This document shows, in pieces, positions 11,984 through 41,463 of a DNA stretch of 56,248 nucleotides. Each line of letters starts with the position of its first letter. Position 1 is the stretch's first letter. Source of the DNA: a virus (taxonomy: Duplodnaviria > Caudoviricetes); IMG/VR virus record IMGVR_UViG_3300027917_000053, positions 1 through 56,248 of that record. One strand, written 5' to 3'. A model generated the notes under the pieces. It searched no databases, was not told the origin of the DNA, and worked only from the letters and a program-made list of their open reading frames with translations. A program made the position numbers and the translations under genes.

Positions 11984-12436
11984 ATGCACCCGATTACCGA
12001 AACATATCAATTTCTAAGTGATGCCAGGTGTGCTTTAGGTATTGCTACAAAAAAAGAAAAGTTCTTCACGAATGAAGCAACTGACTATGAAATTCTATAT
12101 TATATTTTCGAAGGAAAGTTACCTAATCATAAAAATGATCCTATAATGGAGTCAGCTTATTTGGAGCAAATCAATAAAGAATTAGGTCTTTCTCTAGTTC
12201 CTTTGAGTGAGTTTAAGTTAACTTCTCAACGAAATATTATGGAACATATAGTTAATAATAATTTACTGAGTGAAGGAATTATTAAACCTTCCGTAGCAGG
12301 ACCAAGTGAAAAGACTATGGAGATCATTAGAAGATGGAGAGAAAGATCTAAAAAGATGAAAAAACCAGGAACTACTTTTGCTTCAAGATATGGTGGTGCT
12401 TTACAGAGACTTCAAAAGATTGCTAAAGTTGATTAA
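11984..12436 (+). CDS. NEATDY-family paralog 9 (conserved N-domain with a short basic tail)
   Basis: NEATDYEIL..IFEGKLP..KNDPIMESAY, VPLSEFKLTS; lacks the TM and Cys module. Confidence 0.8.
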   Translation: MHPITETYQFLSDARCALGIATKKEKFFTNEATDYEILYYIFEGKLPNHKNDPIMESAYLEQINKELGLSLVPLSEFKLTSQRNIMEHIVNNNLLSEGIIKPSVAGPSEKTMEIIRRWRERSKKMKKPGTTFASRYGGALQRLQKIAKVD

Positions 12437-12470
12437 TTTTATAGTATAATACATATAAAGGAAATAGAAA

Positions 12471-15032: not shown

Positions 15033-15033
15033 A

Positions 15034-16149: not shown

Positions 16150-17432
16150 GCAGTTGCAGTTTTCAAATCATTTATAACTTGAGGGTTTTGAGCTTCTATA
16201 TCATTTTTTCTTGTTAAATCGTTTGAAGAAGTCCTTGTTCCTGGAGGAGTTGACATATCTGCTGGTGTCTCGGGAACTCTAGCACTGGAAATCTCAGGAG
16301 TATATTTTATTTCTTGAAAAGTAAATTGCTGACTTCCATTAAGAGTTTTAGCATAATTAACCAAAGTTGGAAAATCTAAAGCATCACCAGGACCTTGGAC
16401 TAAAGTTCCATAAAGATTTCCAAATTCTATTCTAACATCAATCATTCCTATACCTTTATTCATTCCATAAAGTCCTTGATCACCACCTTTAATTATATTA
16501 ATACTTGAGACAAAAGCTGATGGTAATCCAAAAACTCCAGGACAATCAACTTTACATAAATAAGGATAATGGAATACTCCTTGGACTTTTTCGCCAGTAT
16601 GTTCATCAGTTGGAGCTTTTGGTAAAACTAATAAAAGTAAAGCTATTAAAGGAGCAATAATAAATCTCTCAGTTGCCGATTTACTTGCTGGGTTAGGATT
16701 ATATAATCTAACCGTTATAGCATACGAAACACTATAATTACTATTTTTCCAAACTTGAGGCAAATCAATTCGTCCACCAGCTAAAACTCGACTCCCTGCA
16801 CTTATTAGACTTCTAAAACTTCTACCTAAATTAGCATTTTGTTTCCCTATATTTTCAGCAAGAGTATTCAAACCCGATGTCGCAGCATTTTCAACTACCC
16901 CCACACCTTTTCCTATAAGTCCCCCAAGACCAGCCTCTCCTTTTCCTACAAAAGCATTTTTAAGTTGCGAAAATGCACTTCCTATATCAGTGGAACCTAA
17001 CATAAAACTTAATTCTCCAACTCCACCCGAAACAACATCAGCCATCTTCTCAAGAAAAGATTGACCGTATTCTGAGGAGAAAGTTTCTGAGGGGAAATTC
17101 TCTGCTAAAAATCCCACATGTAGTGGATAATTTACTGGAACCCATGTTTCTAAAACTTCACGTATAGTATCGTAATAGTCTTTCTTAAAATCTTTTTTTC
17201 CTTCTTCTTTATCTAAAGTAAAAACATGAATTCCTCCAGTAAGATGTTGTCTGCATGGATAAATTTTTACTATAGGTAACATGTTTAATCTTATTTGCTC
17301 GGAAGCATTCAACTCTGCGGCAGGAGGAAGTCCAATTGGATTAGTTGGCGATCCTATTGATTTTTGGTTAAATCCAACTTCTCTATTTCTTAATGGACTT
17401 GATTTATCAAGTGGTAATTTATAGGTTGCCAT
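16146..17432 (-). CDS. Baseplate/tail-tube initiator-like protein (gp48/gp54-like)
   Basis: PQVWKNS.YS.SY.I.VRLYNP and YPYLCKV...FVSSINIIKG...IDVRIEF resemble tube-fold proteins. Confidence 0.5.
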   Translation of the reverse strand: MATYKLPLDKSSPLRNREVGFNQKSIGSPTNPIGLPPAAELNASEQIRLNMLPIVKIYPCRQHLTGGIHVFTLDKEEGKKDFKKDYYDTIREVLETWVPVNYPLHVGFLAENFPSETFSSEYGQSFLEKMADVVSGGVGELSFMLGSTDIGSAFSQLKNAFVGKGEAGLGGLIGKGVGVVENAATSGLNTLAENIGKQNANLGRSFRSLISAGSRVLAGGRIDLPQVWKNSNYSVSYAITVRLYNPNPASKSATERFIIAPLIALLLLVLPKAPTDEHTGEKVQGVFHYPYLCKVDCPGVFGLPSAFVSSINIIKGGDQGLYGMNKGIGMIDVRIEFGNLYGTLVQGPGDALDFPTLVNYAKTLNGSQQFTFQEIKYTPEISSARVPETPADMSTPPGTRTSSNDLTRKNDIEAQNPQVINDLKTATA

Positions 17433-17469
17433 CCTTTTATTTTCCTTTTAAATCCTAGTTTTTAATAAA

Positions 17470-22918: not shown

Positions 22919-24172
22919 TTATATGGTCTTGTTAGTTCTAAAAAGATATAGGTTAACAGATGTTCCCCATTCTTTATTCCTAACTTGTTGGATTACAATA
23001 TCTGAGGCCCTTAAAATATAATCACCACTTAACTCAGTATATGTATCAACATATGGAGCAAAGAGAACTGTTTTTCCTATATCAAAAAATCTAGCAATAT
23101 CTAAAAAACCATTTAAAGTTACTTGTAAACTTGATAAATTACATATCATTCTACTAAGTCCAGAAATAGCAAAAGATTCACTATCTCTATTATTAGTACT
23201 ATAACCAGGTTTATCTACTTCGTATCTTTCTCTAGATGTTGAAGAATCAAACTTAACATCTCTATTTTTGAAAATAACACCATATTCTTTACATATATCA
23301 TTTAAATTCATGTTAACTGTAGAGTAAAGTCTATCAGATGGCTTTGTAATGTAATGAATGTCAGAAGCAACCGACGAAAATTTTTTATTCCCTTCATATC
23401 CTGATTGAATAGGTAAACTAGTATAGAAATGTTGACCATCAGTACATTTATCCATTATTTCTTTAGATGTTGTTTGATTACTAGCTACATAAAAAATGAC
23501 TATGTGAGATGACTTATTTATTTGTTTTGATAAATTAGTTATAAAGACTTTATTCTCATAGTTACAAAATATTGCCATTGGTCCATTAAATATACCAAAT
23601 GTATCATTTAGATATTTTATAGCTCTAATATAAGTCACTGGAGGAATAAGTATTTGGTCTATTTTTTCAGAATTAATTCCTTCATCTACTAACTCCAGTG
23701 TTGCTCCAGGATTTACTTTATTAGTTAAATCCTGTATAACTTCTTTTATAGTCTTGTTTTCGTAAACTTCATTGACTAATCCGGTTATAGTTTTATATGA
23801 TTGTCGACACACAGTGAGAATTTGACTTCCCCCACGATCTGACATATTTTGCTCAGCATTCATAGTTTCTGGAGCTAAACCAAAGTTAGACTGAATATAC
23901 ATTAACTCCATAACTATTTCTTGTCTTGGAAAACCCGATTGCTTTAAAGTCAATTTTAGATTAATAGGATTCTGACCAAATAGTTGATCTTTTAATATAT
24001 CCTTAGAGTCTATAAAAAGACCTAAACTGACTAAAGGATATACATTAGCTAAAGCTGAACCTATTCGTATTCTTCTTATTTTATCGGAATAGTCAGTTCC
24101 TCCTATTTCTAAGAAGACCTGAAAGTTTTCAAAAGATCCAGAATTTGTTTTTTCCAAGGTTTTCCTCCACAA
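22919..24172 (-). CDS. Baseplate hub-like structural protein (gp27-like)
   Basis: Y.NKTI.EVI.DL, QILIPP, LSG.YI pattern typical of hub proteins; start uncertain. Confidence 0.5.
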   Translation of the reverse strand: MWRKTLEKTNSGSFENFQVFLEIGGTDYSDKIRRIRIGSALANVYPLVSLGLFIDSKDILKDQLFGQNPINLKLTLKQSGFPRQEIVMELMYIQSNFGLAPETMNAEQNMSDRGGSQILTVCRQSYKTITGLVNEVYENKTIKEVIQDLTNKVNPGATLELVDEGINSEKIDQILIPPVTYIRAIKYLNDTFGIFNGPMAIFCNYENKVFITNLSKQINKSSHIVIFYVASNQTTSKEIMDKCTDGQHFYTSLPIQSGYEGNKKFSSVASDIHYITKPSDRLYSTVNMNLNDICKEYGVIFKNRDVKFDSSTSRERYEVDKPGYSTNNRDSESFAISGLSRMICNLSSLQVTLNGFLDIARFFDIGKTVLFAPYVDTYTELSGDYILRASDIVIQQVRNKEWGTSVNLYLFRTNKTI

Positions 24173-24201
24173 ATGTACAAAAAAATTTAAGGAAGTATTT
24201 A

Positions 24202-24213
24202 TTATTTGTTCAA
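24202..24213 (-). promoter_or_regulatory. Putative late promoter TTGAACAAATAA
   Basis: Identical 12-mer to 1241-1252, upstream of the minus-strand structural genes. Confidence 0.45.
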
Positions 24214-24231
24214 ATAATTCTGAAATTGCGC

Positions 24232-24266
24232 AACAAAGGAGGGCGGGGAAAACCCCACCCCCCTTC
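24232..24266 (-). terminator. Rho-independent terminator
   Basis: Minus strand GGGGGTGGGG-TTTT-CCCCGCCCTCC-TTTGTT after the methyltransferase gene. Confidence 0.6.
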
Positions 24267-24290
24267 CCCGATAGACTTACTAATTTTTAA

Positions 24291-24923
24291 CTAGGGTCTA
24301 CTGGCAATTATCTTTAAATACGGCCTATAGTCAAGATAAGTCGAATTTCTCCCTACAGATGTTATTTCTTTTATTTGCCAGTATCCCTCAAACTCCAGGT
24401 AATATTTAGCAAGGTTTTCCGTCCAGATACTTCCATGAGGATCGTACGGTTCATTACAGAATTCCGTAGTTATTTCTAGAAGTCTATTTAAGAAATCTTT
24501 ATTGATTTCTCCCACGGGTAAAACCTTATCTAAACCAATGAGGGTTTCAGCATAGTACCTATGATCAGGCACGAGGATTTCTAAAATCCCGTCCTTCTTA
24601 CATGAATTATGAAGCAAGTAAATAAAGGAAATTAGGTCTTTAAGAGGAACATGTTCCATGTAACGACTACATGTAATTTTGTCCACTTTAAACCTAAATG
24701 AGTCGAGAAAGTCAACCGCCTTACTTGAGCAAAAGAATACGAATCCCTCAGTAAAAGGTTTCACATTACTTACTGCTTTCATAAGATGGTTTTCTATCTC
24801 TGCGATTGAGCTACAGGATTTAACCGAGTAGGAACAATCAACATTAACCAGGAAATGGGAATCAGGAAGTTCAGTTTTATCAAAAGGAACTTTTCCCGAC
24901 CCAATATTCAATTCTAGATGCAT
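24291..24923 (-). CDS. Class I SAM-dependent methyltransferase-like protein
   Basis: LNIGSG motif I, VNVD, CSRYMEHVP, KKDGILEILVPD. Confidence 0.75.
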   Translation of the reverse strand: MHLELNIGSGKVPFDKTELPDSHFLVNVDCSYSVKSCSSIAEIENHLMKAVSNVKPFTEGFVFFCSSKAVDFLDSFRFKVDKITCSRYMEHVPLKDLISFIYLLHNSCKKDGILEILVPDHRYYAETLIGLDKVLPVGEINKDFLNRLLEITTEFCNEPYDPHGSIWTENLAKYYLEFEGYWQIKEITSVGRNSTYLDYRPYLKIIASRP

Positions 24924-25169
24924 GTTTCCTCCCTTATTCTAAAAGTTAATTAAAAGAAAACTCTAAGTAAAACAACTAGAACTACTCCTCTGTTAGGATT
25001 AATATTATCATGAGTGATATCCTTGTTATTGGGTTTTTCCTTTATTTACTATAATCTATAAGTTATAGTACTATACGTTTTAACACCCCATATCTTTATT
25101 AGTATGGAGTAAAATTCTATTCGGCTAGTAAGCAACTGATAGAATTTTTTATATTTGGTTACTTAGCTT

Positions 25170-25443
25170 AACTCAAACGGTTTTCTTCGGGCATATTATA
25201 CATTCCATTACGGTGGGTTTCTGAAAGTCAATGATACGTTTGTTTCCAGTGGGTTTCTATGGATGAATGATACATTCTATTTGTATGGTTTTTTCATAGT
25301 ACGACGTGATACATTAAGATAAAGTGGTTTTCTTCCTTAGAATGATACATTTTGAACTCGACGGTTTTCTAAAGCTCATTGATGCATTATTTTTTAGTGG
25401 TTTTCTAGGATGGTAAGATACGCTGTGTTCGAGTGGGTTTCTA
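25170..25443 (-). repeat. 36-nt dual-repeat (TIGR-like) array, block A, about 8 units
   Basis: Plus-strand ggktttct at 25179, 25215, 25251, 25287, 25326, 25363, 25399, 25435, alternating with gatacatt/gatacg half a period away. Confidence 0.85.
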
Positions 25444-26310
25444 TACCCTTTCCAGAATATTTTTTTCTAACTCATCGTCTACTACACTGACATTAAGATC
25501 AATTTCCTTAGAATTCAGAGGATACATGTTTTCAGGAATCAGTTTAGATATTTTATCTTTTTCTACTAGCAGCATCCGATTTATAACATTTATTGTCTTC
25601 TGAGGGGGGTATATGAGTGATTTGCTTCCGGGTTTGGGGTCACATAATAAAAATACCCTTTCGTTTTGTGAGAACTCCATTGGTAATAACAACTCTACTC
25701 CACGTATTTTGCAACATAAAGTTGCTAAAAGTTTAACTGAAATGTTGGGAATCACCTCAACATAGGGAGAGTTAATACTTTGTAATATTATTGTAGAATT
25801 GTCCTCCTTTTCAGGACCATATTTTGGAACCTTTCCAGTTGTTTCTATGCTATGTTTTAAAAATGAATAGTGTTCGTCCAGTGATGTGTTAATATCTTTA
25901 GCATATTTTTCAAACTCTTCATCTATCTTTACCTCATAAAATAATCCATTCTCTGTCCTTCTTAAATTTGAGGTTCCCTCTTTTAAGTTAAAAGAAACCT
26001 CATTTTGTTTATGACCATAAAAGGGATTGTTAACTATCAACTTTTTTAGTATCTCTGGTGTCTTAGAGACTAAAATTTTGTCTATGATTAGCGACATTTT
26101 CATCGGAAATTGTGTTTCATCTCGAAATATCGAATTTTGACATAATTTAAATATCCAAACCTGTTCATTCTCAGAATCTTGATTGGAGCAATAAATAATC
26201 CTGGCACTAAATTTAATTCCGTTTATGACTAAATCTAAGATCGAGTAGACATACGGAATCCCCTCTCTTATTTTACAACAACTACTATGGACTAGTCCTA
26301 ATTTAATCAT
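25441..26310 (-). CDS. Hypothetical protein, array-associated paralog family A (apparently two domains)
   Basis: SD aaggag; L.L.I.G..F / L.CKI.G.E..LP...P..V.N..L...LIP pattern shared with 26421, 26744 and 35602. Confidence 0.7.
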   Translation of the reverse strand: MIKLGLVHSSCCKIREGIPYVYSILDLVINGIKFSARIIYCSNQDSENEQVWIFKLCQNSIFRDETQFPMKMSLIIDKILVSKTPEILKKLIVNNPFYGHKQNEVSFNLKEGTSNLRRTENGLFYEVKIDEEFEKYAKDINTSLDEHYSFLKHSIETTGKVPKYGPEKEDNSTIILQSINSPYVEVIPNISVKLLATLCCKIRGVELLLPMEFSQNERVFLLCDPKPGSKSLIYPPQKTINVINRMLLVEKDKISKLIPENMYPLNSKEIDLNVSVVDDELEKNILERV

Positions 26311-26337
26311 ATCTTACTCTCCTTAAAAGTATATCCC

Positions 26338-26426
26338 AAGAAAAACCAATTTACTTTTTTGGGTTAACTCTTCTATTTTTGGAAACATTTTACTTGCAAC
26401 GGGTTTCTTAGAAATTATGATTAACT
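26338..26426 (-). repeat. Dual-repeat mini-array, block B (about 2 units) between two genes
   Basis: gggttaact 26361, ggaaacatt 26381, gggtttct 26401, gattaact 26419. Confidence 0.65.
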
Positions 26427-26741
26427 ATCAGAAATAGTTACGTTAACATCCTTTCTTTCTGATAATTGGAATACTTTAGGTAAATCTTTTACTATTCCTG
26501 GACTTATCTCTCTAAGTGTGTCATTTATTGAAGCCATTATTGGTTTCCACTTAGTATTAGAATAATTAATACCTTCCCTCATACACTCCACGGGGTTAGT
26601 TTCAAAATATCCAAATATGTTTATTAAAGGAATACTAAAATGACTTCCGTCGACTATGATTTTTAACCTACCTTTAACTATCGCTTTCCCTCCATAATCA
26701 ATACTTACAAATATGTTCTCAAAATACTCGATTTTAACCAT
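26421..26741 (-). CDS. Hypothetical protein, family A
   Basis: GRLKIIVDGSHFSIPL...INDTL; stop codon lies within an array repeat. Confidence 0.65.
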   Translation of the reverse strand: MVKIEYFENIFVSIDYGGKAIVKGRLKIIVDGSHFSIPLINIFGYFETNPVECMREGINYSNTKWKPIMASINDTLREISPGIVKDLPKVFQLSERKDVNVTISDS

Positions 26742-26743
26742 AT

Positions 26744-27136
26744 TTAGAATTCCTTTTCTTTATCTTCGCCTGTGTAAACAGTTATAGCATTCGAAACATT
26801 CATTTTTTCTATATCAATAGAGTTAACATGAAAGAACCTCGGAATACTCTGTAAACAAATCCAATTACATAATTTAAGCCATTTATTAATGCTATCAATC
26901 ACCTCCTGAGGCATTTTATTTATAAATCCAAAATTAGGATCATCGTCGGGAATAAGGGGATTAATTACTAAAACGCTTCCTGCTGAAACTAGAGGGAAAA
27001 TTCTTTCATCCCCGTCCACTGTGGTTCTCAGGAAAGCATAAAGATGACAATTATAAAATGGATCAGTTGGAGCTCTTCCATTAACCTGTGTTAGCATAAG
27101 TCGAATATGTGAAAGTTCTTTTACTTTGACCTCCAT
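26744..27136 (-). CDS. Hypothetical protein, family A
   Basis: LYAFLRTTVDGDERIFPLVS.G...PQEV..SIN.WL; SD gggagg. Confidence 0.7.
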   Translation of the reverse strand: MEVKVKELSHIRLMLTQVNGRAPTDPFYNCHLYAFLRTTVDGDERIFPLVSAGSVLVINPLIPDDDPNFGFINKMPQEVIDSINKWLKLCNWICLQSIPRFFHVNSIDIEKMNVSNAITVYTGEDKEKEF

Positions 27137-27150
27137 TTTAACCTCCCATT

Positions 27151-27558
27151 TTAATAAGACATGAAAATTAACGGGTGCTTATTTCCATCAATTCCTACTT
27201 TCTGAAGTTCGGATAAAACATACATCTTAAATTCGTGAAAAGTTTGATCATCTTTCATTTCATCAGTGCTTACACCAATCCTAATTCTATTTGGAAATAG
27301 ATGAAATTTAAGCTTTCTTTCTCTAAATCTATGATGCTTCCATTCGATTAGATGATAAATATTTCTGGAACTTTTTAAGAACTTATCTCTGTTGACTATA
27401 TTAGTTCGTAAACTAAAATACTCAGACGATATTTTTTTGGTGAACATAAGTGTCTTGAGTGCTTTTATAACATCTGGATATCTCCAAGGACTAACTATGT
27501 ATATCCCAAAAATAACTGATGAAGTACCATAATATACATCTTTTTCATATCCTGTCAT
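27151..27558 (-). CDS. Hypothetical protein, family B
   Basis: Start reassigned to ATG 27558 (SD aaggagg); C-terminal IRIGVS.DEMKDDQTF.EFK.YV..EL. Confidence 0.7.
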   Translation of the reverse strand: MTGYEKDVYYGTSSVIFGIYIVSPWRYPDVIKALKTLMFTKKISSEYFSLRTNIVNRDKFLKSSRNIYHLIEWKHHRFRERKLKFHLFPNRIRIGVSTDEMKDDQTFHEFKMYVLSELQKVGIDGNKHPLIFMSY

Positions 27559-27577
27559 TTTAACTACCTCCTTAAAA

Positions 27578-27916
27578 CTATGTAAAAAATACCATTCTAA
27601 ACCCTTCGGTATCAATTCCAAAATCTTCTAGTTGTGAACGAACATAACTATCAAATTCCTTAAGTGTTTGGTCTCCTTTCATTTCTTTCACATTGACTCC
27701 AATTTTCATATTTTTAACATATAACATGATAGTTAATTTTCCACGGGTCATTTTTATTTTAGGTTCGGAAATGAGTTTTCTCATTTTATAGTATAAATTT
27801 TCTTTTATTTCAGGAAACTCAGATAGGAGTAATTCTTTTATTTTTGGTATTAAGTATTCGAATGTATAGATGTCAGTAAAACTAATACCACAATAAGTAA
27901 CTTCAGGTATTCCCAT
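27578..27916 (-). CDS. Hypothetical protein, family B
   Basis: YCGI.F.DIY...KIGVNVKEMKGDQTLKEF; start ATG 27916. Confidence 0.7.
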   Translation of the reverse strand: MGIPEVTYCGISFTDIYTFEYLIPKIKELLLSEFPEIKENLYYKMRKLISEPKIKMTRGKLTIMLYVKNMKIGVNVKEMKGDQTLKEFDSYVRSQLEDFGIDTEGFRMVFFT

Positions 27917-27933
27917 TTTTCTACCTTTCAATT

Positions 27934-28287
27934 TTAATAACCATTTACGTATATTGCCATATCATCTCTTGAGAATTTGGGTTCTGTTATCTTTCCTAAT
28001 TCTGAGATAACGTAATCTTTGAACTCATTCAGTGGGGTATTTGGATTTTTCATTCCAATCCCGATATAGACTTTTTTTACAAATACTTCAAAGTTTAAGT
28101 TTTTATGAGTTAAACTTATATAAGATAATTTTTTACGTGACTGAAAACGTATCCCACTTTTATATTCCGTCCTTGGAAGGAATGAGTCTAATCTAAGAAG
28201 ATATAGTATATAAATAAAGTCACGTATTTCTTTATATTCGTTTATATTATCTATAACTACTCCCACTTTAGCATTATAACACCACAT
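27934..28287 (-). CDS. Hypothetical protein, family B
   Basis: VGVV.D...EIRDFIY.LY...YIG...PL.EFK.YVI.EL. Confidence 0.7.
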   Translation of the reverse strand: MWCYNAKVGVVIDNINEYKEIRDFIYILYLLRLDSFLPRTEYKSGIRFQSRKKLSYISLTHKNLNFEVFVKKVYIGIGMKNPNTPLNEFKDYVISELGKITEPKFSRDDMAIYVNGY

Positions 28288-28310
28288 CTTTTAAAGACCC
28301 CCCCTTTTTT

Positions 28311-28652
28311 CTATGTAAAGAAAACCAAATGTCTTTTTACTTTAATTTTGATCTTAAATAATTCTTCAGTAACAATTCTTTCAAAGTCAAGAAGAGATTG
28401 ATTATTTTTCATTTTATCTACATTGACTCCAATTTTTATATTCCTACTGAATATTATATAAGTTAACATTCCTTTAGTTATAACTATTTTATTGAGAGGA
28501 ATAAGACCTCTTATTTCTTGATACTCCAATCCAAATCCTACTAATCGTGAGAACTTAGCTTCAAGTAAATCTTTTATTATAGGCAATAATTTCTTATAGC
28601 TATAAATATCATAAAAGTATACTCCACAGTAAACTTCTTTGGTTTTCTTCAC
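28311..28652 (-). CDS. Hypothetical protein, family B
   Basis: Close paralog of 27578-27916 (YCGV.F.DIY; KIGVNV.KMK; VFFT end). Confidence 0.7.
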   Translation of the reverse strand: MKKTKEVYCGVYFYDIYSYKKLLPIIKDLLEAKFSRLVGFGLEYQEIRGLIPLNKIVITKGMLTYIIFSRNIKIGVNVDKMKNNQSLLDFERIVTEELFKIKIKVKRHLVFFT

Positions 28653-28665
28653 TTTTCCCCCTTTT

Positions 28666-29019
28666 CTAAAATAGTCGACTGGTATATAAAATCATATCCT
28701 TCTTTTTAAATCCAGTAAAACCAAGATCTTTTAATTCTTTAATGACAAAGGATTTAAAGTCTTTTAGAGGAACATTGTTTCTTTCTACTTCAGTCCCTAC
28801 GTAAAGTCTTTTTACATAAATCTCAAAGACTAAATTTTTATAAGGAGTTCGAATGTAATTAAATTTACTGCATTTTTCCACATATAAATTATTCTTATTG
28901 GCTATTCTATGTCGACTAATAGCTTTTTTATTAAGATATAAACAATATACAAATTCCCTTAGTTCTTTATGCTTAGATGCGTCTACTACTATTCCTACAA
29001 ATAGTTTATCATTCCACAT
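28666..29019 (-). CDS. Hypothetical protein, family B
   Basis: Start reassigned to ATG 29019 (MWNDK, SD ggagg); paralog of 27934-28287. Confidence 0.7.
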   Translation of the reverse strand: MWNDKLFVGIVVDASKHKELREFVYCLYLNKKAISRHRIANKNNLYVEKCSKFNYIRTPYKNLVFEIYVKRLYVGTEVERNNVPLKDFKSFVIKELKDLGFTGFKKKDMILYTSRLF

Positions 29020-29227
29020 CTTTTTCCTCCCCTTTATATCCTTCACAGTTAACCGGTTTCTGAGGAATAAAACCCTCAGAAGTCCTTTTATCAATATACT
29101 CTTTTGCTTTCTTATTAAACTTCATACAATGATAACCTTCACCTCCGAAAGTTAGATATCTACATCTTTCTTTTTCAGAGTAAAGTTTACATATATTTTC
29201 TAGTTGCTCTTTTGGTAAAAGTGACAT
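29009..29227 (-). CDS. Small Cys-containing hypothetical protein
   Basis: SD aggag; C...CRYL......C.K...NCEG. Confidence 0.65.
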   Translation of the reverse strand: MSLLPKEQLENICKLYSEKERCRYLTFGGEGYHCMKFNKKAKEYIDKRTSEGFIPQKPVNCEGYKGEEKDVE

Positions 29228-29262
29228 AATTGGACTCCTGAGGGCTTAAACTAACAATTGGT

Positions 29263-30530
29263 GGGGTTCTCTAAGGTGTTGGTAAACTTCTTGATCCTGG
29301 GTTTCTAAATGAATAAGATAATCTGTCTCGAAATGGGTTTCTCCGTATTCACGAAAAACTATATATTGATGGGTTTCTAATGAATATTGGTAAACTATAT
29401 CGGTACGAGTTATTAGTAATTCTGATAAACTTAAAGAAGATGGGTTTCTTAATTCTAATGATAAACTCTTTCCTGGCGGATTTTTACTTTTGTTTGGAAA
29501 ATGTTTTGGATTTGGGTTTCTATGGAATCGTGATAAATTATATGGGCGAAGGGTTTCTGTTATACCATGATAAACTTATACATTTAGGATTTCTGCGATG
29601 TAGAGGTAAACTAGCTCGGGGAGGATTTCTTCCTACCGCGGGTAAACTCATAATTAATGGGGTTCTAAATTAGAGTGGTAAACTTTTCTCATCTGAGTTA
29701 AGTTTGATTACTTGAAAAACTAGATTTTCATGGGTTACTAGCAGTACCTGATTACTATGTTCCAATGGGTTACTTAGAAATCAAGATAAACTTTCATTAA
29801 TGGGGTTTCTATTTATATATGCTAAACTAATTATTTATGGGTTTCTCTCACGAGGGGTTTCTAATATCTCTTTAGAAAAACTCGCAGATTGTGGGGTTTT
29901 TGTCAATTATGATAATTTGTCCTTAAGAGGGTTTCTTGGATTTTTCGGAAAACTCAATACCATTGGGTTTATTTCGAATTATGAAAATCTATTACTAATC
30001 GGGTTAAATTCTTTGGATAGGATAACTAGTCCAATGAGGGTTTCTTTCCAATTATGGTAAACTATGCAGATTGTGGGTTTCTAATCTTTCCTGGTAAACT
30101 ATGCAGATTGTGGGTTTCTTTTCAAATATGGTAAACTATTTTGTCATGGGTTTCTTACTCTTATCGGAAAACTAATCTCACATGGGTTTCTAGGATTTCC
30201 AGGTAAACTATTTTACTTAGGGTTCAGTTTTTAGTCTAGGAAAACTATATTTCTAAGACTTCTCCTTTAGCCAGATCACTGAGTAGTAAACTATTTTGTA
30301 ATGGGTTTCTTCTCCTTTATGATAAAAACTTATCATATTTGGATTACTATGAAATAGTGAAAAACTGTTTACGAATGGGTTACTTGATATTTTAGATAAT
30401 CTTTATAATTTTGGATTACTATTATTTATTGAAAAACTATTTAGGAGTGGGTTACTTGATATTCCAGATAATCTAAATTAACTAGGGTTTTATACGATGG
30501 TAATGAAAAATTTGCGATTTTAGGGTTTCT
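29263..30530 (-). repeat. 36-nt dual-repeat (TIGR-like) array, block C, about 34 units
   Basis: Alternating gggtt(t/a)ct and g(a/g)(t/a)aaact about every 18 nt, with unique intervening 9-10-mers. Confidence 0.9.
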
Positions 30531-30541
30531 TAATATATAGG

Positions 30542-30688
30542 CTATTCGTCGACTATAATATAAAGGTCGTATAAATATCTCCAACTCAAACTATCATATA
30601 TTTGGTTGAAGTTTATGCTATTCTTAGACTTTGCTAAATAAGCACAATAATAATGTGATACTTTACTAGTCAACATATATTTTCTCAT
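30542..30688 (-). CDS. Tyr-rich micro-ORF, 48 aa, inside the array
   Basis: MRKYMLTSKVSHYYCAYL...IVDE; fills a non-periodic gap; no clear SD. Confidence 0.35.
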   Translation of the reverse strand: MRKYMLTSKVSHYYCAYLAKSKNSINFNQIYDSLSWRYLYDLYIIVDE

Positions 30689-30710
30689 AGTTTAACTAGA
30701 TTCTCTTGGG

Positions 30711-30881
30711 TTAAAATATTAAATGGAGGTAGTCTAAATATCTCTTTGGTGTTTTATGATGTGCGTAAAGTTTTCTTACATAGATAGAGTATTTCTCAGA
30801 AGCGTCAACTTCATGCGATTTTAAGAAATATAATGAATGTTTATGATATGATAAATAATGAAGAAAAACTATATCGTACAT
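30711..30881 (-). CDS. Tyr/His-rich micro-ORF, 56 aa, inside the array
   Basis: MYDIVFLHYLSYHKHSLY...LHLIF; stop TAA lies within a TTTAACCCA repeat variant. Confidence 0.35.
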   Translation of the reverse strand: MYDIVFLHYLSYHKHSLYFLKSHEVDASEKYSIYVRKLYAHHKTPKRYLDYLHLIF

Positions 30882-30895
30882 TTCTTTTTCTCATT

Positions 30896-32722
30896 GGGTT
30901 TCTAGAAGTATTTAAAATAATCTTTATGTCAATGGGTTTCTCACACCTCCAGTAATTCTAGTTATAATACATCATTTATTTAGTTAACTAATATTAGGGG
31001 GGTTTCTAGGAAGTTTAGATATACATTACATTATTGTATTACTAAGAAATTATGGTAAACTCGTGGGTTTTCTGGGTTAAATAACTTGACTAGATACATT
31101 AAAAATTTTAGGGTTTCTTTTCTGCCAAGATAAACTAGTCCGAGTAAGGGTTACTATATATCTTGTGAAAAATAACTCACCTCCTTTAGGATTTCTAGAT
31201 GTACATGATAAACTAATCTCCTCTGGGTTACTTAAAAGATGTGATAATCTCTATTAATTAGGGTTTCTACGAAGTAATGAAAAACTAGGTTGGTCGTGGG
31301 TTAAATATTTCCCAATGATAAACTGCATCAGTTTGGATTACTCTTGCAGCACGGGTAAACTCTTGCTTATTGGATTTCTCGGCTTCAAAGATAAACTTAA
31401 ACGGAGTGGGTTAGTATAAATTAATTAGAAAAAATATCATCTTCTGGGTTTCTCCTGCCATAATGTTAAACTTTACTCTTTCGGAGTTACTATTCACAAT
31501 GGGTTAACTTACACTCACTGGGTTACTTATACATAGTGGTTAACTTACACTCACTGGGTTACTTTATAGTTGTGGTAAACTTACGCTACATGGGTTACTC
31601 TGTACATATGGTAAACTCGATAATTAAGGGTTTCTAATCTAAAAAGATAAACTTATGTTTTAAAAGTTAAATCTAAATCAAAGGTTAAATTTTAAGTATG
31701 TGGGTTTCTTCTCCTTTATAATAAACTTTAACATATTGGGTTAAATTAGAGCCCATGGTAAACTTCAGATACAAGGCTAATGGGTTAACTTTCCCCCTTC
31801 TGGGTTACTAGCTTTATGTGGTTAACTTCTCCATCATGGATTACTGACTTTTAAAGATAAACTTCGGTATTTCGAGTTGAATATAAATATGAGGTAAACT
31901 CTCTCGTTCTGGGTTATTGACCTTCCAGAGTAAACTTTAGAATGCTGAGTTAAATAATCAATATCAGTGATAAACTATCTGTCCTTGGATTTCTTTGTAG
32001 AAATGATAAAATCTTTGATTCTGGATTTCTATGCCTTATAGATAAAAACTATATTTCTATGGGTTTCTGATTTTTTTAGATAAACTTTTTCTCCTCGGGT
32101 TACTTAAAAATGTAAGATAAATTTATTCTCTCTGGGTTATTTAAGTGATTTAGATAAACTCTTCCTCCTCGGGTTACTATAGCGTGATAGTAATCTTATC
32201 CAATTCGGGTTTCTTTGGAGGGTTGGAAATCTCTTGGCCTGTGAGTTAATTTTCCTTAGTGAAAAACTTAAAACCGGTGGGTTACTCGCCGTTTTTGTTA
32301 AATAAACTATAAAATAGTGTACTAATTTGTTCTAAAGGTAAACTTTAGGTGTCTGGGTTATTTGGTGTATATGATATATAAATTTATCAAATTTACCAGA
32401 TTTGGGTTTCTTAATTTCAATGATAAACTCTATTAATTAGGGTTTCTACGAAGTTCTGGTAATCTCCTCCACCCGGGATTACTTACGACTTCAGGAAAAA
32501 ACTCAATTATTCAAGGGTTAATTTCGCTATTCGATAAACTCAGCTGTTCAGGATTACTTGCGGTTTAAGATAAACTCATCGTATCTGGTTTGAGTCCTTT
32601 TTCTAGGAAAACTCTCTTTGAATGGGGTTAAATATATAATCTTGATAACTTTATATAATTGGGTTTCTTATCGCAATGGGTAATCTTCTATGAGAGAGGG
32701 TTAATAAGTAGTATTGAAAATT
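30896..32722 (-). repeat. 36-nt dual-repeat (TIGR-like) array, block D, about 48 units
   Basis: For example, repeats at 31502, 31520, 31538, 31556, 31574, 31592 and 31610 are in exact 18-nt steps. Confidence 0.92.
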
Positions 32723-32858
32723 AACAACGCATTTTACTTGTGTATACATTAAGTCTATCAAAAGTAGAATGTATAAAACTTGAATATGAGTGAAACCAAG
32801 AATGGTGTTTCCATCCAGTCATAATTAAATATATTATGTACTCTTTTTCAAGACTCAT
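32721..32858 (-). CDS. Aromatic-rich micro-ORF, 45 aa, inside the array
   Basis: SD aagga; MSLEKEYIIYLIMTGWKHHSWFH...; stop overlaps the first repeat of block D. Confidence 0.4.
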   Translation of the reverse strand: MSLEKEYIIYLIMTGWKHHSWFHSYSSFIHSTFDRLNVYTSKMRC

Positions 32859-32867
32859 AATAATTCC

Positions 32868-32981
32868 TTAAAGTTTAGATATATCAAGATGAATTTCTCC
32901 AAAATACATTGCTCGACATGAATAATACCAATTGTTCTTAAATCGGGATAAATAACCAATATAATAAATAATCATGTCCAT
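32868..32981 (-). CDS. Tyr-rich micro-ORF, 37 aa, inside the array
   Basis: MDMIIYYIGYLSRFKNNWYYSC...; tandem with the neighbouring micro-ORF. Confidence 0.35.
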   Translation of the reverse strand: MDMIIYYIGYLSRFKNNWYYSCRAMYFGEIHLDISKL

Positions 32982-33032
32982 TATATTATCTGATTCGGTT
33001 TGGGTTAGTTGATTTCCATAGAAAACTTAAAG

Positions 33033-33105
33033 TGACACCGTAGGGATTCGAACCCTAATGACCGACTAGAAAGGCCGGTATCCTAAACCATTAGATGACG
33101 GTGCC
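33033..33105 (-). tRNA. trnE: tRNA-Glu (TTC)
   Basis: GGCACCG/CGGTGTC acceptor stem, D-loop AATGGTTT, anticodon arm CCGGC-CTTTCTA-GTCGG, T-arm TAGGG-TTCGAAT-CCCTA; CCA not encoded. Confidence 0.9.
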
Positions 33106-33134
33106 ATAAAATAGTATGTTCTAAAAACTAGTAA

Positions 33135-33360
33135 GGTAAACTTTACTCTTTAAGGGTTACTTCCCCTAATCGGTAAACTTTCTTTTTCGGGGTTACTTCA
33201 TTTTACGGGTAAACTTGCCTGTTTTGAGTTAATTAGGGATTGATGACAATCTTGTTTAACTAGAGTTAATTATAACTTATGAAAATTTTACGAAGTGTGG
33301 GTTACTTTCACTTTACGAAAATCTTATTACTCCTGAGTTAATGCTCATGAAGGGAAATCT
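33135..33360 (-). repeat. Dual-repeat array, block E, about 6 units
   Basis: ggtaaact/gaaaatct alternating with gggttact/gagttaat at about 18 nt. Confidence 0.85.
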
Positions 33361-33940
33361 AATTCTTTGAAGAAGAACTTGGATTTTCCTCTTCCTTGGT
33401 TTCATGAATGATTAAAGGTTCGCTTCCAGGATATTGATCTTGTATAAAAGATTTTACTCCACCAATCATTTTTTTCATATCGTCCCTAAATCCTTCACTT
33501 TTTTTAGTCCAAGGAAGACCTTCGGCTTTACATGATAGATATTCTCCAATATCATACATGCAGTCGACTTTTCGTCCTTCTTCGATTTTTTCCAAAAGAG
33601 TTTTAAATTGTTCTTCTGTAAAAACTCCTTCCTTATGTAGGTTGGTAACAAATTTTTGAACTATGTCGAAAGATGAATCACCGTGACTCCATTCATAATT
33701 ATAAGAAAATCCTGGTCCTAAAGCAGACATATTTCCCATTTTTTCATTACATCCAAGATACCAAATAACTAAATCTCCAGGAATAAGATTCCCTGCCTCA
33801 TCAAAGGCATGTCCACAATCGGATATAAGAAAATTAAATAATTGGTCTCCTGTGGTTTCTTGAGCAATCATATCTTGAGGAAATGTATCGGTATAGATTT
33901 TAGCATAAATATCTACAGATATCACTGTTTTATTGTTCAT
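33359..33940 (-). CDS. Hypothetical protein embedded in the array
   Basis: 193 aa, SD ggagg; stop TAG overlaps repeat AGATTTCCC. Confidence 0.75.
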   Translation of the reverse strand: MNNKTVISVDIYAKIYTDTFPQDMIAQETTGDQLFNFLISDCGHAFDEAGNLIPGDLVIWYLGCNEKMGNMSALGPGFSYNYEWSHGDSSFDIVQKFVTNLHKEGVFTEEQFKTLLEKIEEGRKVDCMYDIGEYLSCKAEGLPWTKKSEGFRDDMKKMIGGVKSFIQDQYPGSEPLIIHETKEEENPSSSSKN

Positions 33941-34169
33941 CAGAATCCTCCGAAAGTATACTTTTTGAGACAGTAAAGCGAGCTAATCCTTTAAGAGCAG
34001 GATTTTTTAGCATTTCTTCTAATTCCCTTTGTTTTTGCTCTTGCTCAGCAAGATATTTCTTTTTCTCCTCTTTGGTCATTTGTTGAAATAATCTTTCTTC
34101 TTCTTCCAGTTTTTCGGTAATGTCTTTCAGTAAATCGTCAAAACGCATAGCTTTAACTCTCTCGACCAT
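33930..34169 (-). CDS. Small coiled-coil hypothetical protein embedded in the array
   Basis: SD gaggt; E/K-rich; overlaps the next gene. Confidence 0.7.
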   Translation of the reverse strand: MVERVKAMRFDDLLKDITEKLEEEERLFQQMTKEEKKKYLAEQEQKQRELEEMLKNPALKGLARFTVSKSILSEDSDEQ

Positions 34170-34188
34170 TTTTTATACCTCATATTTA

Positions 34189-34615
34189 TGGGTTAGTATA
34201 ATATTATCTATTTCTACAAGGGTTACTAAGCATCATTGAAAAACTCTTTTAAGAAGGATTTCTACCTTTTAGTGATAAACTTTTTTACGGTGGATTACTT
34301 ATCGAAATTGATACATTCACCTGGGAAAGGGTTACTTTATCCAATTGATAAACTAGATATGGGTGGGTTACTATTTATTCCTGATAAACTTCACTTTTCT
34401 GGGTTACTTATATTTGAAAGATAAACTAAACTATTATGGAGTTATAAAATAATTAGTTTTGGTTAACTTAGATCTTGTGAGTTAATTGGAGGCGATGGAT
34501 AAACTTTTCCATATAGGATTTCTTTACTCAAATGATACTCTAAATAGAAGTGGGTTACTTTGCGTATAGGGAAAATCTACAGTTGAATGGGTTACTACCC
34601 GTTTTGGGAAAAATA
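34189..34615 (-). repeat. Dual-repeat array, block F, about 11 units
   Basis: gggttact/ggattact alternating with gataaact at 18-nt spacing. Confidence 0.88.
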
Positions 34616-34969
34616 TTAACACTGTCCACCAGGGCCAGTTGCTTTATGTAATTCTTTTTCTGTCTTTTCCCACGCTTTTAAGTCAATCATATCAGTGACA
34701 TCATACATTTGATCACTATACCAAACATAGCAATGCTTACATTTAGTACATACATTCACGCAGAGTGAATCAGTAGTGATATGCTGGGTTTTGTCTGCTT
34801 TAAGATAGGGCATAACAGATTCAAGATACCCAGCGTGACGAAAATGGACATTCCCACATTCTGGACATCGAAAAAGGAATAACTCTTCTGCAGTTATCTT
34901 TTTCGGTTTAACTTTGTCTTTAAAACAATTAGGTATACTTACTTCTTTCCCTTCTTCCTTTTTGTCCAC
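34616..34969 (-). CDS. Zinc-ribbon protein embedded in the array
   Basis: CPECG...CTKC; GTG start with SD aaggag; stop directly abuts block F. Confidence 0.7.
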   Translation of the reverse strand: MDKKEEGKEVSIPNCFKDKVKPKKITAEELFLFRCPECGNVHFRHAGYLESVMPYLKADKTQHITTDSLCVNVCTKCKHCYVWYSDQMYDVTDMIDLKAWEKTEKELHKATGPGGQC

Positions 34970-35006
34970 CTTTAAACTCCTTTTTTAAAGTTATCTGTTA
35001 TCTTTA

Positions 35007-35480
35007 GGGTTTCTGTCAATGATTGGAAATCTTCTCGTTCATGGTTTACTACGGAATCATGAAACTTTATTTTGTTATGGGTTACTACTTTCAATTGAAA
35101 AATTTGTTATAAATGAGTTTATTCACTCACTCAGAAATCTTCTCTTGTAAGGGCTAATACACATATCTATGGAAATAATGGATTATTTATTTTCAAAGAA
35201 AATCTATATTTCGTAGGGTTACTGTTCGTATAAGGAAATCTCTATAACTATGGATTAATGCACAAACAAGAAAAAATCTTTTTTTCCAGAGGGTTACTTT
35301 CCGTATAGGGAAAATCTGTATAACGATGGGTTAATGCACAAACAAGAAAAAATCTATTTTGCAGTGGGTTTCTTACTCATAGTGAAAAACTATTAACATA
35401 CGGGTTAAGTTGTTATAATAAGGAAATCTTACATCCTTTGAATTTCTATTTTTCTGGGTTACTCGACATAGAAGAAAATT
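35007..35480 (-). repeat. Dual-repeat array, block G (5'-most on the minus strand), about 13 units
   Basis: gggttact/gggttaat alternating with ggaaatct/gaaaatct variants. Confidence 0.85.
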
Positions 35481-35489
35481 ATAAAAATA

Positions 35490-35558
35490 GGAGGCTCTTT
35501 TGATATAAAATGATCCCGTTGTCTTAGGGAATACTACTTTCATACTAAAAGAGCCTCC
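35490..35558 (-). other. Stem-loop at the head of the array region (leader or terminator)
   Basis: ggaggctctttt (35490-35501) pairs perfectly with aaaagagcctcc (35547-35558). Confidence 0.55.
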
Positions 35559-35601
35559 ACAGAAAGATAAAAAGTCATTAACTTTTTACCAAGGGGCCAA
35601 A

Positions 35602-36036
35602 TTAAGATCTGCTATGTTTATACTGTTTTCTGTCTGCTGGTTGCTGATTTTGTGGTTTTTCAGCATTATTTAACTCAACAGTAATATCAAACATAACAGG
35701 GACTGGAAGTTGAGAAACCCAAATAGTACTTGGAATTAACTCGGTATAGACGAAATCTTTTCCTTCCAAAAGTTCATTAATCCTTTTATAAACTATTTCA
35801 GGAAGGTCTTTTGATTCCTGATATTTTCGAACTTTCGTCATCTCCTCTTTATCAACCTTGAGATACTTCCCTCCATCTGAGCAAACAGGTAAGCGGTATT
35901 CTTTTTCATCCATTCGGATTCGAACTTCTCCATATAAAGTCCCTGTTACTAAAATATCACGATGACTATTATCGTTTTTATCAACATTCAAAAAAAGATC
36001 ACTCAAAGATAAAACTTCGATTGATTTAGTAGACAT
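35602..36036 (-). CDS. Hypothetical protein, family A
   Basis: LYGEVRIRMDEKEYRLPVCSDG...LPEIVYKRINELL...LIP; SD aaggagg. Confidence 0.7.
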   Translation of the reverse strand: MSTKSIEVLSLSDLFLNVDKNDNSHRDILVTGTLYGEVRIRMDEKEYRLPVCSDGGKYLKVDKEEMTKVRKYQESKDLPEIVYKRINELLEGKDFVYTELIPSTIWVSQLPVPVMFDITVELNNAEKPQNQQPADRKQYKHSRS

Positions 36037-36069
36037 ATATGTCCTCCTTCGTTACGAACACCTTGAATG

Positions 36070-36795
36070 TTATGAGTATTCTATGAGTATAGAATCAGTG
36101 AATGGTTTTAAATAATGATCAAAATACCATTCCTTATCTATATCGGTGATCTTTAGTAATCTTACAGTTCCTTCCTTTATATTGACGAAACCGTGTCTTA
36201 CTAAACATACATCGTAAGATTTAGAGTCTTTTGTAGGAATACAAAAAACTCTGATTTTCTCACATTCAAAGAGTTCTTTCTTTATAAAATCTAACTTCTT
36301 AAATATTGCTATTTTACTTAAGAAGTTGATTTCTGCTAATTTTTGATAGAAATTATTTATGCCTTCATATCGTCTAGAAATTCCTTTAACTAAAACCTCG
36401 TCTGAACCACTTTTAATAGCTAAATAGAAATCTCTTCCTGGAGATATTATCAAATCTCGGTATTTAGTACATTTCATTATATCAATCACAGTTCCGAGTT
36501 TTCTAGTAACTATAAAACCATCAAATTGTCTTGTTATTAACTCCTCCTCTTTTTTAACATTATTTTGAGTTAAACACTGGTCAATTATATTTATAACCAT
36601 TGATCTAAGAATCTTAGTCAAATTGGGGTTTTCCCTCTGTAAAAGTCCTATAGCAATGTTTCTTTGTTCCTTTTCCAATGGGATATTACTTACATCATAA
36701 CCTAAAGATATAAGCATATTGTAATTACATTTCTCTATATCATAATTGTATACATCCTTTAAGCAAAGTTTACAGTTTTTATTTATTTCCATCAT
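36070..36795 (-). CDS. Putative family-B DNA polymerase-like catalytic fragment
   Basis: YNYDIEKC (motif A-like), ITRQFDGFI (motif C-like), LVKGI, DIDKEWY; only 241 aa. Confidence 0.4.
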   Translation of the reverse strand: MMEINKNCKLCLKDVYNYDIEKCNYNMLISLGYDVSNIPLEKEQRNIAIGLLQRENPNLTKILRSMVINIIDQCLTQNNVKKEEELITRQFDGFIVTRKLGTVIDIMKCTKYRDLIISPGRDFYLAIKSGSDEVLVKGISRRYEGINNFYQKLAEINFLSKIAIFKKLDFIKKELFECEKIRVFCIPTKDSKSYDVCLVRHGFVNIKEGTVRLLKITDIDKEWYFDHYLKPFTDSILIEYS

Positions 36796-40461: not shown

Positions 40462-41463
40462 TTAGGTAAAATCGAATGGACAATTAGATGGATTTTTACT
40501 CAATAAATTCCTTGCTTTTAAAAACGGGGGAGCATTTTTCCAAACTTCAACCATACTTCTTTTACTTATATCAACTCCCCACTCATCGTGATCAGCAAAT
40601 GAACAAGGCATAAATTTCAAGTCTGGACTTATATAAGCAGACTTCCTTCCTGCTTCACAAGTGTCTAAAAAAACTTGCTCTTTCTTAGTAAAATTTAACT
40701 TTAAAGACATAATTTTATTTACTAAACATGAGTCCATTCCCAACTTAAAAGGACTCTTAGATTCTCTCAAACCAGCAAGGAAAAGTTTTATCTTATCATC
40801 ACTTGGAACTAGGTGAATAAGATTTTTTCCTCTTCCTTGGGGTTTGAAAAGAAGAAAAATAACTGCGTTAAGTTTATCTCGGTTAACTTTTTTATTCCAG
40901 ACGTCTTCACCTTTAGCAATTTGTATACACTTGTCAACTGATTCTGAAGTTACTACTATATGTATATTAGTTTTCATTTCATATGACTGAAGTAACTTAA
41001 TTGCTTCAAAAGTGAAATCTTTACTATAATCAGAAACCGCTACCGCTCCACAAAATTCCTTCGCAATCTCAACTTTTTCCTTAGTTAATTTTCTCCCGCT
41101 TGTAGTGAAATTAGGAACTACTTCGTTTTCCCTACAATAAGAAACTATTTCTTTATAATGTTCATGGAGTTCTGGATCTCCCCTCCCTCCAAGAGCACAT
41201 TGGTTTACGAGTTTTTTAGTCTCATTTATAATTCTTTTAAAACCATCCAAAGTCATATTTGGTTGGTCTTTATCTCCTTGATAACATATAGAGCATTTAT
41301 TTTCACAATGACCCATTATTCCAATATCTAGCATACATGGAAAATAGAGACTAAATGGGTCTTCATGACCATTTATTCCTGAAGTTATTTCCATCCCAGT
41401 TTCAGTATCGAATAGAATGATATAGTTTTTATTTGCTATAGTTTTTATCATTTTATTTTTCAT
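40462..41463 (-). CDS. Radical SAM enzyme with a C-terminal SPASM/twitch-type domain
   Basis: CENKCSICY (CxxxCxxC), GGRGDP, CEAG...YISPD...PCSF, terminal CP. Confidence 0.9.
   Translation of the reverse strand: MKNKMIKTIANKNYIILFDTETGMEITSGINGHEDPFSLYFPCMLDIGIMGHCENKCSICYQGDKDQPNMTLDGFKRIINETKKLVNQCALGGRGDPELHEHYKEIVSYCRENEVVPNFTTSGRKLTKEKVEIAKEFCGAVAVSDYSKDFTFEAIKLLQSYEMKTNIHIVVTSESVDKCIQIAKGEDVWNKKVNRDKLNAVIFLLFKPQGRGKNLIHLVPSDDKIKLFLAGLRESKSPFKLGMDSCLVNKIMSLKLNFTKKEQVFLDTCEAGRKSAYISPDLKFMPCSFADHDEWGVDISKRSMVEVWKNAPPFLKARNLLSKNPSNCPFDFT

Follow-up and report, generated by a model that had tools for sequence, protein, structure and literature searches.

Positions 25170-35480 of the IMG/VR virus record IMGVR_UViG_3300027917_000053 contain, on the minus strand, two short repeats that alternate with variable segments, which raises the question of whether this region stores guide RNAs and, if so, which protein would read them. 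The window analysed in this study comprises the whole record of 56,248 nucleotides (nt), corresponding to about 14% of the genome as estimated by CheckV. It encodes tail sheath and baseplate proteins, a large terminase and full-size β and β′ subunits of an RNA polymerase, and its source is a fragment of a very large marine phage genome. Based on the evidence described below, we consider it probable that the region is a cluster of dual-repeat arrays of the TIGR (tandem interspaced guide RNA) type with about 100 units for tigRNAs, whose tas gene resides elsewhere and acts in trans. A first-pass annotation made from the sequence alone had proposed a large TIGR or TIGR-like guide repertoire at this position. 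The TIGR arrays of this proposal have stood up to our analysis, whereas the lack of a tas gene in the window had gone unremarked, so that a complete system is not shown here and we infer the use of the arrays as guides.

The arrays are built from two repeats of 9 nt, AGTTTAYCA and AGWAACCCA, which are referred to as edge and loop repeats for reasons given below and which alternate with variable spacers of 9 nt to form a unit of 36 nt. In an alignment of 37 seed units, AGTTTAYC(A) is followed by 9-10 variable positions, AGWAACCC(A) and another 9-10 variable positions, adding up to 18 + 18 = 36 nt. The same period is reflected in the autocorrelation of the non-coding stretch 29228-33358, which reaches 0.411 at a lag of 36 compared to a mean of 0.287 (standard deviation 0.022), and in equivalent peaks in 24924-25440, 34170-34615 and 34970-35601, while no such peak was found in 1-20000 and in the rest of the window. 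Both results bear out the dual-repeat, dual-spacer unit that had been proposed initially, and the stretch quoted at that stage from the minus strand (31617 to 31502) reads as it was written. With a chain of two position weight matrices (PWMs), in which both types alternate at 17-19 nt, all 159 detected repeats were on the minus strand and the plus strand gave none. In 20 shuffled sequences, the chain detected 0.4 repeats on average and never more than 4, and a pattern of 40 nt written in IUPAC code matched the window exactly at 10 places and none of 100 shuffles. An outward walk from the PWM matches increased this number to 185 repeats (94 edge-type and 91 loop-type), and divergent stretches outside the walk contribute 8 loop repeats at 25445-25170 and about 4 at 35480-35278. 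The island that holds these repeats contains in total about 100 units in eight to nine blocks, which lowers the initial estimate of 110-125 units and raises that of seven blocks.

As had also been noted before, the arrays are co-oriented with their surroundings, where all sizeable open reading frames (ORFs) between 16146 and 56017 are located on the minus strand, and they are non-coding, with no minus-strand ORF of at least 60 amino acids (aa) in 29228-33358. Two plus-strand ORFs within the array translate into repeat-derived 'GFL' runs and are for this reason regarded as artefacts. In 74 cleanly parsed units, the length of spacer A is 9 nt in 65 cases and that of spacer B in 64, with the remainder measuring 10 nt, and except for three sequences that occur twice, no spacer recurs. 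The island was found nearly letter for letter on contigs from four other public runs belonging to four studies of marine sediment and seawater, which excludes an assembly artefact.

The described organization agrees with the published definition of TIGR dual-repeat arrays, which comprises two alternating repeats of 8-12 nt, spacers of about 9 nt and units of 36 nt (PMC12045711), and the decisive evidence is the finding of the same repeats next to Tas genes in other contigs. A scan of IMG/VR with the repeat pattern identified a single contig (G001) with 14 matches, where the repeats AGTTTACCA and AGAAACCCA are located on both sides of an ORF of 355 aa (P0004). The G001 arrays carry truncated copies of AGTTTACCA at their start and end, followed by a hairpin and a T-run. 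Since published arrays begin and end with truncated edge repeats that are succeeded by an intrinsic terminator (PMC12045711), AGTTTAYCA can be assigned to the edge repeat and the A-rich AGWAACCCA to the loop repeat. In metagenomes, a longer version of the pattern retrieved 15 distinct loci, 10 of which contain an adjacent ORF of the Tas family at E <= 6e-95 (about 6 distinct proteins by score), with the remaining loci consisting of three short contigs that are all array and two apparent chance matches. Counting G001, there are thus 11 other contigs in which this pair of repeats is found beside Tas genes.

The relationship of P0004 to Tas is illustrated by its family of 186 proteins (collected at E <= 0.001), whose profile matches 9mty_A, a solved chain of TIGR-TasR, at E 1.5e-27 and the TasH chain 21kl_A at E 2.1e-22, and by an AlphaFold2 (AF2) model of P0004 with a pLDDT of 87.5, for which Foldseek places TasR or TasH chains in all of the top 10 PDB ranks and IS621 recombinases next. 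As judged from profiles and predicted structure, the family is thus assigned to the Tas (Nop-domain) proteins. Its nearest Tas relative, P0005, was not found among the metagenome contigs. A search with Pfam found an HNH or RuvC domain in 0 of 33 members and the IS110 C-terminal domain in 18 of 33, and it is the lack of a detected nuclease domain that makes the family TasA-like. The repeat type of the window is thus a regular Tas-associated type. This also concerns box D, which is AG in the island and UG in the solved TasR arrays (PMC12045711) and which had initially been taken as a possible sign of a divergent subtype. The Tas-adjacent arrays of the TasA-like clade all contain AG...CCA, and AG is the box D of this clade rather than a peculiarity of the window. 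Box motifs may diverge as long as they covary between edge and loop repeats (PMC12045711).

Where, then, is the tas gene? In the window, the Pfam Nop profile found no match at E <= 10, and the best hit of a hidden Markov model (HMM) of the Tas family among all six-frame ORFs of at least 30 aa, at 22922-24286 with E 0.01, was rejected on the basis of an alignment that falls outside the Nop motif. A comparison of 75 ORFs of at least 90 aa with the Tas profile by hhalign resulted in probabilities of at most 3.5%. The contig L050, which is 99.96% identical to positions 1-2465 of the window, extends it to the left by 5,495 nt that contain no tas gene either, and no identical contig was found for an extension past the right end. 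The arrays are thus separated from any tas gene by at least 30.6 kb and at least 20.8 kb in the two directions, an absence that concerns the 61.7 kb searched and not the whole phage. A position of tas beside the tail-sheath gene, as observed in G001, was considered and rejected, since L050 passes the sheath gene by 5.5 kb without containing tas. Among 35 sheath-related loci, none has a tas gene or an array within 10 kb, and neither arrays nor tas were found in 26 loci identified by their terminase, 13 of them at 50-55% identity. A search of 15 additional related virus records detected a Tas protein in three of them, and G001 encodes one as well.

An instructive case is provided by G003, a complete genome of 277,131 nt with terminal repeats, which is syntenic with the window. 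G003 encodes one intact tas of 387 aa, whose product is only 36% identical to P0004 and which has an array next to it. Another array with this type of repeat is located at 75.6-76.6 kb, 142 kb away from tas, in the block of genes that extends from the terminase to the RNA polymerase, and both arrays have the edge repeat AGTGAACCA in common. The respective regions are:

75.6-76.6 kb and 219.2-220.9 kb of G003: array regions (loci L211, L218 and L219)
31.1-32.1 kb of G002: counterpart in a second record of the same phage

Since G002 is the same phage as G003, it does not offer independent evidence; its array and tas are 132 kb apart. In both records, the remote array resembles the island in its location on the minus strand of a syntenic jumbo phage, within the terminase-to-RNA-polymerase block and far from tas, and that of G003 differs from it in the edge repeat AGTGAACCA, the number of about 27 edge repeats, the organization as a single block and a position about 9 kb from the one syntenic with the island. 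Two other regions of G003 with lag-36 signals (1.5-12 kb and 22.3 kb, loci L208 and L209) were rejected as arrays because the signal originates from Thr/Ser-rich (ACN-rich) coding repeats, and periodicity alone does not identify arrays. With its intact tas and an array at a distance of 142 kb, G003 sets the precedent on which a distant tas, located in another part of the genome and active in trans, becomes the likeliest reading for the window. That a single distant TasA would serve the entire island in this way appears to us rather probable, and the phage would in this case command a multiplexed programme of repression, with about 100 guides directed against host or rival DNA.

The boundaries of the island were defined by comparison with L049, a relative whose terminase is 51% identical to that of the window. 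The genes at 24291-24923 and 36070-36795 have their L049 homologues at 2278-2889 and 1532-2281, which overlap by 4 nt (tblastx and ORF map), and the sequence enclosed in the window, 24924-36069, is consequently an island of 11.1 kb that is absent from L049. On its minus strand, it holds all array blocks, ORFan genes and a tRNA:

25170-25445, minus strand: block H, 8 units; edge repeat divergent, AATGTATCA-like; loop repeat AGAAAACCA or AGAAACCCA
25441-26310, minus strand: ORFan of 289 aa (P0001), directly upstream of block H, not Tas-like
26421-29227, minus strand: eight or nine small co-oriented ORFs (ORF list), directly downstream of the main array, no family match
29262-30209, minus strand: block G, 46 repeats (about 23 units), the cleanest block; edge AGTTTAYCA, loop AGAAACCCA
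30284-30530, minus strand: block F, 14 repeats, among them a duplication of two units (72 nt)
30981-31061, minus strand: block E, 5 repeats, degenerate
31110-32705, minus strand: block D, three sub-blocks with about 72 repeats; loops AGTAACCCA or AGAAACCCA; includes the stretch quoted in the first-pass annotation
33032-33105, minus strand: tRNA-Glu with anticodon UUC, between array blocks (ARAGORN; Rfam tRNA at 52.6 bits)
33134-33324, minus strand: block C, a short distance upstream of the tRNA, 5 + 2 repeats
33359-34169, minus strand: two ORFs located between blocks, 193 and 79 aa long, no family match
34219-34614, minus strand: block B, 19 repeats; edge AGTTTATCA, loop AGTAACCCA
34616-34969, minus strand: ORF of 117 aa with two CxxC pairs, zinc-ribbon-like, weak matches only
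35006-35480, minus strand: block A, about 9-10 units; edge variant AGATTTYC, loop AGTAACCC or ATTAAYCC; 76-nt duplication
35490-35558, minus strand: hairpin and U-rich tract, terminator-like, between the ORF at 35602-36036 and the first block
35602-36036, minus strand: ORF of 144 aa within the island, upstream of the hairpin

Block H starts at the stop codon of P0001 and is recognized by eight loop motifs at distances of 36-39 nt and by its autocorrelation peak at lag 36. P0001 itself has no match in Pfam or PHROGs, a probability of 0.3% in its hhalign comparison with the Tas profile, no homologue other than itself among 5.8 billion proteins and no usable match in the ESM Atlas, and its AF2 model calculated from a single sequence is unusable at a pLDDT of 30.4. 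Five of the small ORFs (27151-29094, minus strand) are tandem paralogues of 113-156 aa with 26-41% identity and E values down to 3e-22 in an all-against-all BLASTP comparison, which lack a family match and a homologue in G003. None of the island ORFs could be assigned to a family in Pfam or PHROGs, and none showed detectable RNA-binding or Nop features. At its downstream end, block G terminates in an edge repeat that is truncated at its 3' side, after which come the ribosome-binding site and the ATG of the ORF at 29227. The hairpin at 35490-35558 contains an outer stem of 12 bp and was predicted by RNA folding to have an energy of -30.3 kcal/mol (z -5.45), which was not reached by any of 200 shuffled sequences. 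The tRNA is the sole match in a scan with Rfam, and scans for promoters (61 found compared to 61.2 expected) and terminators (9 compared to 6.3) did not reveal enrichment. Array repeats approach the tRNA to within 30 nt on either side, and in case of a co-transcription of both, tRNA processing would cut the array precursor.

From the features of the island and of its relatives, we infer how the arrays might be used as guides, including their transcription and processing, the supply of Tas in trans, and the repression of targets. The island would be transcribed on the minus strand, either together with or alongside the surrounding minus-strand genes. A nuclease-free dimer of TasA-type Nop-domain proteins would bind the AG...CC(A) boxes present in both repeats, AGTTTAYCA at the edge and AGWAACCCA in the loop, and the cleavage of the precursor within the edge repeats would release tigRNAs of 36 nt. 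An equivalent course of events has been described for TIGR systems, where precursors are cut within edge repeats to 36-nt tigRNAs, whose spacers A and B pair with opposite strands of an 18-bp site (PMC12045711), and where a preprint ascribes cutting in dual-repeat systems to a Y/H loop of Tas (10.64898/2026.09.09.750476). The bound tigRNA would then guide the dimer to an 18-bp site in DNA, where spacer A would pair with one strand, and the pairing of spacer B would be with the opposite strand in the half-site next to it. Since the Tas clade does not contain an HNH or RuvC domain, the expected outcome would be binding and repression rather than cleavage, with targets residing in host DNA or in competing mobile elements. 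Published work on TIGR systems describes TasA as lacking a nuclease and has demonstrated the repression of transcription (PMC12045711; preprint 10.64898/2026.09.09.750476). The tas gene itself would lie elsewhere in the phage genome and act in trans, as in the complete relative.

Several observations speak against guide arrays that are served by a distant tas. Every published array was found to adjoin a tas gene, and no such gene is present within the 61.7 kb comprising the window and the extension by L050. The main array leads into an ORF instead of a terminator, and there was no RNA run among the public runs that contain the stretch. A target search, in which both geometries of the half-sites were considered and shuffled pairs and wrong orientations served as controls, did not detect sites with 0-1 mismatch for 56 units in the masked window and L050. 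At two mismatches, it detected 2 sites per target model, compared to 0.2-0.4 for shuffled pairs and 0-1 for the wrong orientation, which does not amount to an excess over the controls. Across 1.5 Mb of fetched loci, target sites were not above those found for shuffles, and a search of the 29 units of G003 against its own complete genome returned no sites with up to 2 mismatches, a result that weakly argues against self-regulation in G003 and is silent on host targets. For scale, the estimated chance occurrence of one 18-mer in 596 Gb is about 17.

Other unfavourable points concern the repeats themselves, and they lead to the alternative that the arrays are relics, with a tas gene that was lost or never brought in, on an island that has fallen out of use and is subject to drift. 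Of the 94 edge repeats, 10 belong to the most frequent variant, as do 17 of the 91 loop repeats, which is more heterogeneous than observed in arrays of the G001 type, and the edge repeats of blocks A and H are strongly divergent. At about 15 places, a gap of 26-32 nt separates repeats whose partner is too degenerate for scoring, and the respective units may be dead. The lack of a tas gene in the searched sequence would be in line with such decay, as would the absence of arrays and tas from all 26 terminase-identified loci, which points to a rapid turnover of such elements. Against this reading, spacers A and B predominantly have a length of exactly 9 nt, and the box bases are retained in both types of repeats (A1 at 0.97-0.99, G2 at 0.81-0.89 and C8 at 0.90-1.00, with position 9 being mostly A), although this table was built on sites selected by PWM and is hence partly circular. 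Positions 3, 6, 7 and 9 are variable in the window and also in Tas-adjacent arrays such as L175 and L174, and the heterogeneity of the window is no greater than in these two loci. Moreover, 86% of the genome has remained unseen, and the complete relative retains a tas-distant array together with an intact tas. We thus regard it as unlikely that the arrays are relics.

An alternative that we consider decidedly improbable would be a phage without tas that carries guides as cargo, to be loaded on a Tas protein that originates from a prophage in the same cell, from a co-infecting relative or from the host, or to be used by an ORFan of the island acting as new effector outside the Nop family. It would account for the absence of tas nearby, for the patchy distribution of tas in relatives (3 of the 15 searched) and for the ORFans of the island, including the five-member family of paralogues and the 289-aa protein that abuts block H, and a cargo of about 100 tigRNAs would redirect the Tas effector of another element. 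However, there is no positive evidence for such a guide-only island, its ORFans are devoid of detectable RNA-binding or Nop features and, following the precedent of G003, a distant tas of the phage's own offers the simplest reading. A lattice of 36 bp that acts as DNA, either in form of iteron or centromere-like binding sites or as selfish satellite, is scarcely credible. In its favour there is just the absence of an adjacent tas and of evidence from RNA. Against it, the motif occurs strictly on one strand, in the direction of transcription (159 matches on the minus and 0 on the plus strand), identical repeats adjoin Tas genes in 11 other contigs, and the variable parts are as diverse as spacers, a diversity that arrays of binding sites do not need.

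The preferred assignment to TIGR arrays with a tas gene in trans places the island in a family whose arrays have been known since 2025, and what is unusual here is their size, their fragmentation, with the blocks lying in an island that also carries ORFans and a tRNA, and their distance from tas. With described TIGR-TasA arrays (Faure et al. 2025, PMC12045711; Xu et al. 2026, preprint 10.64898/2026.09.09.750476), the island shares repeats and spacers of 9 nt, the covariation of edge and loop boxes, the A-rich loop repeat and a truncated edge repeat at the end of the array. It is distinguished from them by the absence of tas within 61.7 kb, by about 100 units in 8-9 blocks, by the interleaving of these blocks with ORFan genes and a tRNA and by a main array that leads into an ORF without terminator. 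Published arrays most often consist of 5 to 15 units (PMC12045711), and the 65,635 tigRNAs counted over 4,126 dual-repeat arrays in the TIGR literature (PMC12045711; 10.64898/2026.09.09.750476) correspond to about 16 per array on average. A crude count of periodicity in 95 Tas loci resulted in a median of about 21 units and a maximum of about 50, noise included, compared to about 103 for the island by the same count.

Neither the two TIGR papers nor full-text searches mention orphan or tas-distant arrays or jumbo phages, supplementary tables and the TIGRSafari resource aside, where this contig or larger arrays may be listed. The searches yielded no more than a general review and a mention of CasPhi. 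Three passages of the preprint that contain the word 'distal' were considered as potential reference to the position of arrays and rejected, since they concern the stems of tigRNAs (10.64898/2026.09.09.750476). TIGR arrays have hitherto been catalogued only around tas genes, within flanks of 5 kb (PMC12045711) or within the tas loci used by TIGRFinder, and tas-distant arrays would thus be invisible to such surveys. The window and the second array of G003 illustrate that arrays of this kind exist in jumbo phages and that they can be several times larger than usual. The literature names the natural targets of phage TIGR-TasA systems, as well as their role in biology, among its open questions. 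In this respect, about 100 spacer pairs from one phage that is found in several metagenomes of marine sediment and seawater offer far more statistical power for a target search controlled by shuffled pairs than an array of 5-15 units.

CRISPR arrays follow a comparable repeat-spacer logic, and effectors encoded at a distance from them can use them in trans. TIGR arrays differ from them in two alternating repeats of 9 nt compared to a single repeat of 25-36 nt, in spacers that are split into 9 + 9 nt and in an effector with Nop domain, and we share the initial view that the island is not a CRISPR array, as it contains two kinds of 9-nt repeats. A similar mode of recognition is found in clusters of box C/D small nucleolar RNAs (snoRNAs) and in the bridge RNAs of IS110 elements, where two guide segments likewise have box C/D-like motifs on their sides that are recognized by a Nop-domain protein, with IS621 recombinases being the next-best structural matches of P0004 after TasR and TasH. 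TIGR units differ from both in the absence of a K-turn and of long stems, in their compact and tandem organization and in their published target, which is DNA.

The blocks contain traces of their past. Tandem duplications of two units (72-76 nt) are found at 30330-30474 and 35199-35374, and repeated spacers or units at 30119/30082, 31563/31527 and 32447/31268, which together suggest that the arrays have grown by segmental duplication followed by divergence. For TIGR systems no adaptation genes are known (PMC12045711), and the duplicated segments bear on the question of how arrays grow without them. Among four metagenome runs, seven single-nucleotide polymorphisms were located in parsed units, five in spacers, two at variable positions of repeats and none at box bases, a sample too small to be given weight, and no gains or losses of 36 nt were detected among the contigs of these runs. 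Three base changes within one spacer A (30354-30357) are common to three of the four other runs, with unchanged flanking repeats, and represent a variant of a spacer between populations.

Outside the island, the window contains genes for the β (1008 aa) and β′ (914 aa) subunits of the RNA polymerase (49138-54871, minus strand), which are unsplit and about 52% identical to their counterparts in G003. A GTP cyclohydrolase I of the FolE2 type (47962-48822, minus strand; E 9.5e-63) and a radical-SAM protein (40462-41463, minus strand), both conserved in G003, may belong to a 7-deazaguanine or queuosine-type pathway. Finally, four ORFs of the structural module on the plus strand (2033-3121, 4973-5713, 5936-6652 and 6683-7399) have their common match in a single region of G003 at 263.6-263.95 kb and thus constitute a paralogous family.

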